Translations under genes and position numbers: made by a program
Shown: positions 744 to 4,655 of the stretch, in pieces
Layout of the letters: the number at the start of each line of letters is the position of its first letter
How positions within the stretch are numbered: the first letter of the stretch is position 1
From: Neodothiora populina
Lineage: Eukaryota
Direction of reading: 5' to 3'
NCBI RefSeq assembly: GCF_041146345.1
Contig: NW_027191402.1
Span: 434,001 to 498,000, forward strand
DNA: 64,000 bases
Notes under the pieces: model-generated
Databases searched by the model: none
The model's input: the letters and a program-made list of their open reading frames with translations, nothing else
Told to the model about the DNA's origin: nothing

Positions 744-1035
744 AAACGCAGAATTGCGGGCAGGTCCATAAAATTCAGGGTCCGGGTTTGGAATATTCCA
801 AGTCTCGCAGTCAAGTGCATGACCCATCTTTATCTTCTTTGCGACCAAGCATTATTCCACCGACGCCACTCTCTACAGGCGTTTGACAAGATCCAATCCC
901 AAACAGCTTGTCGCATAGAGCAGCGTGACAAGTCTCAAAATTCTGTCGCGAGCGCTTCACAGGAGCGCATCGGTGCTAAGACGATCACCCGGGATACTTG
1001 GCTTTCACCAGCGTCGGCCTCTGACCTCCAGCAAG

Positions 1036-4000
1036 ATGGCGCTTAACGCAGCCTCCCACAACCCTAGTATGTTCGATCCGATGGCATGAGAAGGGGGAGA
1101 AAGAGGAGGATATAGAGAAATGATGGAGGAGTTGTGCAGAGCTGGGCTGACCGGTACTCATCTGCAGCGGGCGAGAAGACCGGCCCTGTCACCGGACAAG
1201 CACCCCCAGTGTCGTCTGAAGCAGCACAAGACATCCTCGCCGCCTCCGAGAAGGATCCCAAGGGCACTAATGTGCCTGGCCAAGCCGGCGGAGAAGGCAG
1301 TGAGGCCCCGAAGAAGGCCAAGAGCGAGAAAGAGCGTACGTCAACCTATCCGCTTCGAACAGTCATACGCTGGGCACCACCTCGAACGCAGCGCCATCGC
1401 TTGCTTGATGCTCGGCGCTGGTCAGATCTAGAGCTCTGACTGACATTGAACCCTTCACAGTGGCAAAGGAACGTGCCAAAGCCGAGAAAGCCGCCAAATT
1501 CGCCGCCAAGCAGGCAAAGCAACAGGGCAGCGCTGCCGCCGCTTCAACCAAGACCAAGGAGAAGAAGCCCAAGGAGAAGGAGGAGGTCTTGCCCCCATAC
1601 GCTGAAGAGACGCCCCCAGGAGAGAAGAAGAGTAAGATTGGCACTTGTGGAGCGGAGATGCTTGGACTGATCACTCCTTACAGTTCTCAAACCTTTGGAC
1701 GATGCCTACCACAAGGCCTACATTCCCTCCGTCGTCGAGTCCGCCTGGTACGACTGGTGGGAGAAGGAGAAGTTCCACGAGCCCGAGTTTGACGCGGATG
1801 GCAACGTCAAGGCCAAGGGTTACTTTGTCATCTCCGAGCCTCCACCAAACGTTACTGGCGCCCTTCACTGCGGTCACGCTCTCGCCACATCTCTCCAGGA
1901 CACCCTCATCCGCTGGAATCGCATGAGAGGCTTGACCACTCTTTATCTGCCTGGATGCGATCACGCTGGTATTTCCACACAGAGCGTCGTGGAGAACATG
2001 CTCTGGAGAAGACAGGGAAAGACGAGACACGACCTTGGCCGTGAGAAGTTCACGCAGACCGTGTGGGACTGGAAGAACGAATACCACTCCAAGATCAACA
2101 AGGTCTTGAGGAGAATGGGAGGTTCATTCGACTGGACTCGTGAGGCTTTCACCATGGATGCCAACCTGTCCGCTGCCGTGAGCGAGACCTTTGTCCGTCT
2201 GCACGAGGAGGGCTACATCTACCGATCGAACCGTCTTGTGAACTGGTGCACCAAGCTGAACACCGCGCTCTCGAACCTTGAGGTCGACAACAAGGAGCTC
2301 GAAGGTCGCACTATGCTCGACGTCCCCGGATACGATCGAAAGATCGAGTTCGGTGTCATCACTCACTTCAAGTACCCTATCGAGGGCTCGGACGAGACCA
2401 TCGAGGTGGCCACCACCCGTATCGAGACCATGTTCGGTGATACTGGTATCGCAGTCCACCCTGACGACAAGCGCTACACGCATCTCATTGGAAAGAAGGC
2501 GAAGCACCCCTTTGTCGATCGTCTCTTGCCCATCTTCGCAGACGAGTACGTCGACCCGGAGTTCGGAACCGGTGCCGTAAAGATCACCCCTGCCCACGAC
2601 CCTAACGATTTCAACCTCGGTACCAAGCACAAGCTTGAGTTCATCAACGTGCTCAACGACAACGGCACAATGAACAAGAACGCCGGTGCCTTTGAGGGAC
2701 AGAAGCGATTCGAGGCTCGTTACACCGTTACCGAAGAGCTCACCAAGCTCGGCCTCTTCGTCAAGAAGGAGAACAACCCCATGAAGGTCCCGCTCTGCTC
2801 CAAGTCCAAGGATGTCATCGAGCCCATCATGAAGCCCCAATGGTGGATGCGCATGTCGGAGCTTGCACAGACGAGTATTGATGCTGTGCAGAACGGCGAG
2901 ATCAAAATCCGCCCCGAAGGCGCCGAACGAAACTTCTACCACTGGATGCGTAACATCAACGACTGGTGCTTGTCACGTCAGCTATGGTGGGGTCACCAGA
3001 TCCCCGCCTACTTCATCAAGATCGAAGGCGAGTCGAACGAAGACGACGATCAGCGATGGGTCACAGGCAGAACCGAGGAGGAGGCCAAATCCAAGGCCGA
3101 GAAGAAGTACCCTGGCCAAAAGATTGAGCTCGTCCGCGACCCTGACTGTCTGGACACCTGGTTCTCTTCTGGACTGTGGCCTTTCTCCACTCTGGGATGG
3201 CCTAACCAGACCCACGACCTGGAGAAGCTGTACCCAACCTCTGTGTTGGAGACCGGCTGGGATATTTTGTTCTTCTGGGTCGCAAGAATGATCATGATGG
3301 GTCTCAAGCTCACTGGCAAGGTTCCCTTCACTGAAGTGTACTGCCATTCGCTCATCCGTGACTCCGAGGGAAGGAAAATGTCCAAGTCTTTGGGTAACGT
3401 TATCGACCCCGTGGATATCATGGACGGAATCACGTTACAAGAATTGCACGACAAGCTACTGGCCGGTAACCTTGACCCCAAGGAAGTCAAGACTGCCACC
3501 AAGTACCAGAAGGACTCGTTCCCTCAAGGTATCCCAGAGTGCGGAGCTGACGCTCTTCGTTTCTCTCTTGTTCAGTACACCACCGGTGGCGGCGACATTG
3601 CTTTCGATGTCAGAGTCATGGCAGGCTACCGCCGTTTCTGTAACAAGATCTACCAGGCGACCAAGTACGTTCTGGGCAACCTGCCCAAAGACTTTGTCCC
3701 TCAGGCAAAGGGTGGCAAGACTGGCAAGGAATCGCTGGCCGAGCGCTGGATCTTGCACAAGTTCACCATCACTGCCAAGGAGATGAACGAGGCTCTTGTC
3801 GCCCGCGAGTTCTCGCGCTCCACTCAATTCGCTTACCAGTACTGGTACGACAACCTCTGCGATGTCTACATCGAGAACAGCAAGGCCATCATCAGAGACG
3901 GAACCGAGGAGGAGAAGAGGAGTGCGATTGATACCCTCTACACGGCGCTCGAGGGTGCTCTGTGCCTCATCCACCCCTTCATGCCTTTCCTTACCGAGGA

Positions 4001-4655
4001 GCTGTGGCAACGTCTTCCCCGACGCCCCAACGACAAGACCAGATCTATTGTCGTTGCCGAGTATCCCGAATACGACGCCAACCTGGACGACGCGAACAGC
4101 GCTGCCGCCTACGAGCTTCTGCTTGGATGCTCCAAGGGTGTGCGTAGTCTCATGTCCGAGTATGCGATCAAGGACGAGGGCAAAGGTAAGCAACACGCAA
4201 CCCCACTTCCTATTTCTTGCACGATAAGAACTGACCCTCTTCTAGCATTCGTGCACTGCAGCGACGAGACATCATACAAGACCGCCTCCGCCGAGCAAGC
4301 GACCATCAAGTCCCTCTCAGGCAAAGCCCTCACGGGCCTGACTGTCCTATCACCAACCGACGCGCGCCCCACCGGCTGCGCAGTCTTCGCCGTCTCTGCA
4401 TCTGCAGCCGTGTTCCTCGAAGTCGCCGGCCGCGTGGATGTCGAAGCCGAGATCTCAAAGGCGCAGCAGAAGCTGCAGAAGGCGTCCGAGGGCGCCAAGA
4501 AGCAGCGCAAGATCCTCGACGCGGAGGGCTTCGCCGACAAGGTCAGCTACCAGGTTCTCGAGACCGAAAAGACGAAGTTGGATGACCTGTTGGCTGAGCA
4601 GAAGAACTACGAGGAGAGTATTGCGCAGTTTGAGCAGCTCAAGTTGAGCAAGTAG
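1036..4655 (+). CDS. VAS1: Valyl-tRNA synthetase (cytosolic AUG form; possible GTG-initiated mitochondrial form from 925)
   Basis: [13 protein letters not shown] (HIGH-like), [25 protein letters not shown] and KMSKS motifs. ATG 1036; introns 1067-1167, 1336-1460, 1632-1683, 4186-4245; stop 4653-4655. Confidence 0.96.

Follow-up and report, generated by a model that had tools for sequence, protein, structure and literature searches.

The ValRS gene and its leader

The window analysed here (the whole stretch of 64,000 nt; Neodothiora populina, NCBI RefSeq assembly GCF_041146345.1, contig NW_027191402.1, positions 434,001 to 498,000 of the forward strand) contains in its first 4.7 kb the 3' end of an upstream gene (to approximately position 275), an intergenic stretch, and the five-exon gene for valyl-tRNA synthetase (ValRS). 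The annotated ValRS of N. populina, P0001 (1093 aa), matched the window at 100% and was reproduced exactly by translation of the joined five exons (Table 1). Its sources name it valine--tRNA ligase or hypothetical protein. The precomputed Pfam domains of P0001 (PF00133, PF08264, PF09334, and PF13603) revealed that the class I ValRS core and the anticodon-binding domain are present, and both a HIGH-type motif and a KMSKS motif (within KMSKSLGN) were found, which we take to be the signatures of a class I synthetase. The annotated protein starts at ATG 1036 with M-A-L-N-A-A-S-H-N. The subject of this study is the leader directly ahead of this ATG, which probably encodes an unannotated mitochondrial presequence.

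The original prediction from the window had described a GTG at 925, located behind an in-frame TAG (916-918), as the start of a 37-codon frame that stays open to ATG 1036 with no ATG in between, and had proposed that its product, a peptide with 6 Arg, 2 Lys, and no Asp or Glu, is a mitochondrial presequence. The coordinates were exact when re-checked, and the composition of the peptide was as described. No ATG was present in any frame within 850-1035, including 919-1035. The other in-frame near-cognate codons of the leader were ATT 940 (context CTCAAA, C at +4), CTG 943, GTG 973, ATA 994, and CTG 1021. The extension of the window carries a net charge of +7 to +8 and contains no acidic residue.

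Transcript cover of the leader was obtained from run X2, which came from the same sample as the best holder of the DNA, was logged as 'DNA?', and was available as contigs. The X2 contigs were spliced with GT..AG ends at 1066/1168, 1335/1461, and 1631/1684 (introns 1-3; skipping 1067-1167, 1336-1460, and 1632-1683), and X2 therefore contains cDNA. One contig (850-1066) was colinear with the window, with 0 differences and a depth of 8.7, and a weaker contig covered 739-879 at a depth of 2.9; the bin 622-682 was uncovered. As a result, the mRNA was found to include the proposed upstream start, with the leader covered by X2 contigs and 1066 spliced to 1168. The contig starting at 850 was preceded by a 20-letter loose end, presumably the terminal part of a nanopore ligation adapter; this hints that a molecule ended close to 850. 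On an mRNA beginning there, AUG 1036 would be the first AUG. No splice joint into the leader (e.g., at 916-918) was detected among the X2 contigs. Two circumstances that the original prediction had named as fatal to it were thus not found: in place of an upstream AUG exon spliced to 916-918, the sequence was colinear from 850 to 1066 without such a joint in X2, and instead of transcription starting only downstream of approximately 945, contigs covered the leader from 850 or earlier.

The longer and weaker of the two leader contigs (739-879; depth 2.9 vs 8.7) also contains ATG 819, and longer transcripts with the open reading frame (ORF) of ATG 819 may possibly be poor templates for both isoforms. 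X2 also contained contigs that were unspliced through introns 1 and 2 (1037-1197 and 1306-1490), at approximately one-third to one-half of the exon depth, which suggests intron retention or pre-mRNA. In runs X3 and X4, which are labelled as another organism and belong to another study, two short contigs each were identical to the window at 990-1166 and 1192-1289, including intron 1, and then continued into unlike sequence; these contigs may be chimeric or represent contamination. Runs X3, X4, and X6 (the last with short low-identity pieces only) were uninformative on the leaders of relatives.

Conservation of the upstream frame among relatives

Orthologous loci were collected from metagenomes by scanning with the back-translated peptide M-A-L-N-[A/H]-A-S-H-N. 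Among the 105 loci returned, tblastn confirmed 62 as ValRS, and 49 of these were distinct. The nearest named proteins of the loci include those of Aureobasidium (87-90%), Elsinoe (87-88%), Cladosporium (97-99%), and Extremus antarcticus (100%), and several loci were only 65-78% identical to any named protein.

An open, basic, and acid-free extension without an in-frame ATG was found in 40 of the 49 distinct ValRS loci. When the loci were classified, 36 carried an in-frame motif of the I-L-(S/R)-(R/K)-A-L type with no in-frame ATG within 45 codons, 4 carried the motif plus an ATG (in 3 of them two codons upstream of the codon preceding Ile), 3 showed an ATG-started extension with the motif missing, 4 had neither motif nor ATG, and in 2 the frame was closed within 15 codons. 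The frame of the main ATG was open for at least 20 codons upstream in 46 of the 49 loci, compared with 29 and 35 for the other two frames. When A[AC]N-AT[ATC]-[CT]T was sought without regard to frame in the 150 nt ahead of the main ATG, 39 matches were in frame versus 4 and 3 in the other frames, and 8 loci lacked the motif. The in-frame matches were located 60-87 nt from the main ATG, save one at 18 nt. The conservation of the frame in relatives, for which the original prediction had proposed an orthologue alignment, was upheld.

Next, a set of 46 sequences, comprising the window and 45 motif-bearing loci (7 of the 45 not confirmed by tblastn), was used for comparison of the extensions. At 80% identity, 23 clusters were obtained, and the lineages seen with the motif were Dothideales, Myriangiales-like, Cladosporium, Mycosphaerellales-like, and several others. 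Between the Ile codon of the motif and the main ATG, 2 ATG triplets were observed in any frame, whereas 35.4 were expected. The translation in frame 0 contained only 2 Asp or Glu among 1117 residues and 257 Lys or Arg, while the other two frames of the same extensions contained 103 and 58 acidic residues and 14 and 23 stops, respectively. In 38 same-length pairs, the substitutions at codon positions 1, 2, and 3 numbered 129, 93, and 208 in the extension, a coding-type pattern, whereas the 45 nt upstream were far more divergent and showed 222, 231, and 225. A 47-residue extension searched against longer proteins found no match, which is weak evidence.

The pooled extensions were rich in Arg (20.4%) and Leu (14.6%), followed by Ser (9%), Ala (9%), Pro (8.5%), and Phe (8%), with Asp at 0 and Glu at 0.2%; such a composition is typical of matrix presequences. 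The hydrophobic moment of the window extension reached a maximum of 0.70 (z of 0.98 against shuffles). The peptide ends in R-P-L-T, which the original prediction had compared to a site of the mitochondrial processing peptidase (MPP). An R-3-type motif marks MPP cleavage, and R-P-L-T fits it; the pattern R/K-x-[FLYIV]-[STAVKN] occurred in the last 9 residues of 25 of the 46 extensions, window included, a count that belongs to a loose pattern without a control set.

In contrast to the loci, few annotated proteins include the extension. Among the best 120 protein hits, 76 begin at an M-A-x-N motif and 3 (P0007, P0052, and P0059) have an in-frame extension; all three contain (T/K)-I-L-(S/P)-R-A-(L/F). 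P0138, a member of the 90% cluster of the window's own protein, reads M-L-K-I-L-S-R-A-L-S-R-S-A-P-V-F-R... ahead of M-A-L-N, and its source contig (3494 nt) is too short for introns. One and the same protein is modelled as P0059 (M-H-A-A-T-I-L) and as P0125 (V-H-A-A-T-I-L), with GTG at the initial codon in the corresponding loci. An initial Met in the extended models is therefore no proof of an ATG, and that of P0052 and P0138 is equally uncertain.

A minority of loci (L029, L052, L065/L067, and L066/L079) did not show the AUA motif in an open frame. Some of these carry instead a short, basic peptide started by ATG (M-T-P-L-V-R-S-L-F-L-Q-R... or M-N-R-S-Y-I-R-R-F-A-T), and two are closed within 8 codons. 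These differences indicate that the type of start changed several times.

Candidate start codons

The codon for the Ile of the motif, which corresponds to ATT 940 in the window, was ATA in 35, ATT in 9 (including the window), and ATC in 2 of the 46 sequences. The proportions were similar in the tblastn-verified loci plus the window (ATA 29, ATT 9, and ATC 1 of 39) and when counted per 80%-identity cluster (ATA 17, ATT 5, and ATC 1 of 23). In the ValRS coding parts of the loci, Ile was encoded by 385 ATC, 240 ATT, and 110 ATA codons (ATA 15%), and none of the 44 Ile codons in the large exon of the window was ATA. Pairwise identity between -45 and -5 with respect to the Ile codon was 0.24-0.37, which is the random level, and rose abruptly after -5: of the 46 sequences, 34 share C at -4, 45 share A at -3, and 38 share A at -2. 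The resulting C-A-A-N-AUA resembles the preferred fungal start context. The importance of A at -3 in fungal start contexts has been stressed (PMC5487733). The codon following Ile was CTG in just 12 of the 46.

In-frame stops precede the Ile codon at a short distance in several loci: six have TGA at codon -8, L016 has TAG at -4, and L042 has TAA at -6. In L012, L024, L045, L070, and L071, the segment from the in-frame stop to the Ile codon is free of near-cognate codons. Because of the sharp onset of conservation, the codon bias, and the close upstream stops, the conserved start was assigned to the Ile codon, that is, ATT 940 in the context CTCAAA-ATT-C. Thus, the central part of the original prediction, a near-cognate-started and unannotated mitochondrial presequence with leaky scanning to the AUG, was supported by the orthologues and the leader cover; its choice of GTG 925 as the start was not, since GTG is missing at the aligned position in 39 of the 46 sequences, and the conserved codon is ATT 940, which had been listed there as an alternative.

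GTG at aligned codon -5 (window 925) was found in 7 of the 46 sequences, namely the window and six Cladosporium-like loci. These six (L025, L049, L059, L060, L068, and L091) keep GCC-ACC-GTG five codons upstream of their ATA or ATT, and prokaryote-style gene callers already begin Cladosporium-like models at the GTG (P0125 and P0059); judged by sequence, the Cladosporium-like clade may have an additional GUG start. An in-frame stop at aligned codon -8 was also seen in 7 of the 46 sequences, as TAG in the window and as TGA in L012, L038, L045, L070, L071, and L085. This recurrence could be due to chance or form part of an unrecognised element.

A candidate hairpin was noted 13-29 nt past the proposed start, where GCGCU is followed by (A/G)GCGC in most of L002-L092 (952-956 with 964-968 in the window). 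The Ala codon there was GCG in 26 of the 46 loci, although in the coding parts GCG is used less than any other Ala codon (206 of 1127). In the Aureobasidium-like group, the 3' arm is read in another register. Folding of single sequences gave a mean z of -0.70, and no consensus structure was predicted by RNAalifold. The 5-bp helix (952-968) was paired in 70.2% of cells compared with 68.8% in shuffles (reached by 79 of 500), with a covariation of 0.167 compared with 0.125 (12 of 500). The hairpin is therefore unsupported beyond column composition, and the two registers of the 3' arm blur the test.

The coordinates of the features are given in Table 1. Upstream of them, the 3' end of the neighbouring gene occupies positions 1-275 on the + strand with an apparent intron at approximately 132-183, and its translation resembles the putative C-terminal end of a casein kinase II alpha subunit.

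Table 1. Features of the ValRS locus, in window coordinates
Feature	Position	Strand	Remarks
Out-of-frame upstream ATG 819	819..1046	+	75-codon ORF overlapping the main ATG; only in transcripts starting upstream of 819
AUG-free 5' leader upstream of the proposed start	850..939	+	Covered by an X2 contig
In-frame stop TAG closing the frame upstream	916..918	+	TGA at the same aligned codon (-8) in 6 other loci
GTG, first in-frame near-cognate codon and earlier candidate start	925..927	+	Context AGCAGC-GTG-A, A at -3
Kozak-like CAAA, ATT 940-942 (proposed main start), and CTG 943-945	936..945	+	Context and Ile codon conserved
Predicted presequence coding stretch	940..1035	+	32 codons from ATT 940; 37 from GTG 925
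R-P-L-T, possible R-3-type processing motif	1015..1026	+	Predicted cut after Leu 1021-1023
Annotated AUG, cytosolic form	1036..1038	+	Strong context AGCAAG-ATG-G (A at -3, G at +4)
ValRS gene body	1036..4655	+	5 exons: 1036-1066, 1168-1335, 1461-1631, 1684-4185, 4246-4655

Proposed dual expression and its alternatives

On the basis of the sequence comparison, it is likely that the ValRS mRNA encodes a mitochondrial presequence started at a near-cognate codon, most likely AUU 940, with leaky scanning to AUG 1036. Given the conserved frame, context, and codon, the coding-type substitutions, and the transcript cover of the leader, we infer initiation at the near-cognate codon, import, and cleavage as follows. 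In this Dothideales fungus, the leader of the mRNA would begin at approximately 850 or earlier and be free of AUG. A minority of the scanning ribosomes would initiate at a near-cognate codon in the strong C-A-A-A context, most likely AUU 940, the homologue of the AUA kept by most relatives, and the product would start with M-L-S-R-A-L-H-R-S...; GUG 925 may be an extra start of this species that yields a slightly longer precursor. The Arg-rich and acid-free presequence of 32-37 residues would direct ValRS into mitochondria, and its probable cleavage site near R-P-L|T would lie shortly ahead of the N-terminus of the cytosolic form, such that both precursors give the same mature enzyme. Most ribosomes would pass on to AUG 1036, with its A at -3 and G at +4, and produce the cytosolic enzyme.

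Several points qualify this proposal or weigh against it. Among mononucleotide shuffles of 919-1035, 23% keep the frame open and 22% are ATG-free, and the observation in the window by itself is therefore weak; its significance comes from the comparison with orthologues. That comparison has its own biases, as the 46 sequences were picked by an in-frame peptide motif, so that their open frame and the A-T of the codon follow in part from the selection, and the 49-locus classification and the frame-blind search serve as the unbiased denominators for this selection effect. In addition, the 7 loci lacking tblastn confirmation are included among the selected 45, and the loci are phylogenetically related, so that sequence pairs are not independent. 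The hydrophobic moment of the 46 extensions was not above that of shuffles (mean z of -0.24; above 0 in 22 of 46). The run that supplied the leader cover was logged as 'DNA?', and contigs cannot prove a 5' end. With regard to the start itself, AUU is a weaker start codon than GUG or CUG in reporter studies, and a scanning ribosome reaches GUG 925 before AUU 940.

The last two points also favour an alternative in which the presequence is real and is started in this species mainly at GUG 925, with AUU 940 as a minor start. No in-frame near-cognate codon lies between the stop and GTG 925, which has A at -3; GUG is usually the better start of the two, and GCC-ACC-GTG is kept at the aligned codon by the Cladosporium-like loci. 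However, the loci lacking GTG at this position include the nearest relatives of the window (L086, L061, L077, and the L008 group), and identity upstream of -5 is at the random level. Furthermore, the window and L086 have in common a 10-mer containing TAG 916-918 that is shifted by 5 nt against the conserved CTCAA (an apparent 5-nt indel), indicating that the frame is not kept upstream of approximately 934. A main start at GUG 925 was therefore considered unlikely, though it is the most credible of the alternatives.

The other alternatives were regarded as considerably weaker. The conserved leader might be an untranslated regulatory RNA or DNA element from which no extended protein is made, and its conserved GCGC motifs may pair into a small hairpin (952-968); this is very improbable in view of the excess of substitutions at third positions, the occurrence of the motif in frame in 39 cases against 7, the avoidance of acidic residues and stops in frame 0 only, and the covariation, which does not support the hairpin. 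A similarly slight probability was assigned to the view that mitochondrial ValRS comes from a separate gene or an internal signal and that the extension is what remains of a former AUG-started presequence now in decay. A separate mitochondrial ValRS is described for Schizosaccharomyces (PMC7049704), but a relic would not retain the frame, the context, the acid-free composition, and the depletion of ATG across 23 clusters. The least probable source of the mitochondrial form is another transcript, in which an upstream AUG exon is spliced into the leader (e.g., at the AG of 916-918) or ATG 819 is used: the low-depth contig does reach 739 and includes ATG 819, but X2 has no joint into the leader and is colinear over 850-1066, ATG 819 is out of frame with an ORF ending at 1046, and no upstream ATG is conserved in the orthologues.

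The proposed presequence with a near-cognate start was compared with known systems. The ValRS of Saccharomyces cerevisiae, Candida albicans, two Cryptococcus species, and Neurospora crassa is listed as 'DualAUG', and that of Schizosaccharomyces pombe as cytosolic only (Wallace et al. 2020, PMC7049704, Table S5). A 'DualAUG' ValRS is encoded by one gene in which a targeting peptide at the N-terminus precedes a second AUG (PMC7049704). A presequence is thus expected at this position, because the DualAUG fungal ValRS genes carry one there. The arrangement proposed for N. populina resembles S. cerevisiae VAS1 and N. crassa cyt-20 (NCU01965, the orthologue), in which one nuclear gene serves the cytosol and mitochondria and the targeting peptide is encoded immediately before the cytosolic AUG (PMC7600831, PMC7049704). 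It differs in that the long form of VAS1 and cyt-20 is started by AUG (in yeast, on a longer transcript), whereas here and in 40 of the 49 loci there is no in-frame upstream AUG.

The proposed use of an upstream near-cognate codon to add a presequence, with leaky scanning for the cytosolic form, is known from S. cerevisiae GRS1 (UUG) and ALA1 (ACG) (PMC7600831, PMC2909995). Here, unlike GRS1 and ALA1, the enzyme is another one, the codon is AUA or AUU, and both codon and context are conserved over many lineages of filamentous fungi. Likewise, near-cognate mitochondrial isoforms have been proposed for LeuRS (ACG) and ArgRS (AUU) of Cryptococcus, where a near-AUG start lies upstream of a predicted targeting sequence in a single-copy aminoacyl-tRNA synthetase gene; those cases are from a basidiomycete and concern other amino acids, and the ValRS of Cryptococcus uses two AUGs (PMC7049704). 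Outside the synthetases, the Pezizomycotina cpc-1 gene has deeply conserved near-cognate codons with A at -3, a near-optimal context, and an in-frame extension under purifying selection, but it encodes a transcription factor, and its extension of approximately 180 residues has no role in organelle targeting (PMC5487733). The fungal 6-phosphogluconate dehydrogenase has a cryptic targeting signal in the annotated 5' untranslated region with a non-AUG start; unlike the presequence proposed here, this signal is a peroxisomal targeting signal (PTS2) (PMC7214817). In the literature searched, which was limited to one library, a non-AUG isoform of ValRS was not described for any filamentous fungus, and the supplements of PMC5487733 contain no mention of valyl or synthetase.

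Mitochondrial translation requires ValRS, yet the annotated proteins of N. populina and most of its relatives start with MA(L)N... and have no import signal. If the AUA or AUU start is true, it would explain how these fungi supply both compartments from a single gene, and a systematic gap in annotation would be corrected. On balance, it seems somewhat favoured that in much of the filamentous ascomycetes mitochondrial ValRS is made only from a conserved AUA (or AUU) in a C-A-A-N context; it would then be among the most widely conserved AUA-initiated proteins known, current annotations would lack it in most of these genomes, and the GCG...CGC pair might tune initiation. The principle is already established for other aminoacyl-tRNA synthetase genes, and known biology would be extended rather than overturned. 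Nevertheless, the AUA or AUU start codon and the conservation of codon and context in many lineages place the case beyond a single-gene curiosity. If confirmed, it would provide an AUA initiation site that is conserved in nature and of a kind seldom documented, and its dozens of natural variants could serve the study of start-codon stringency in filamentous fungi.

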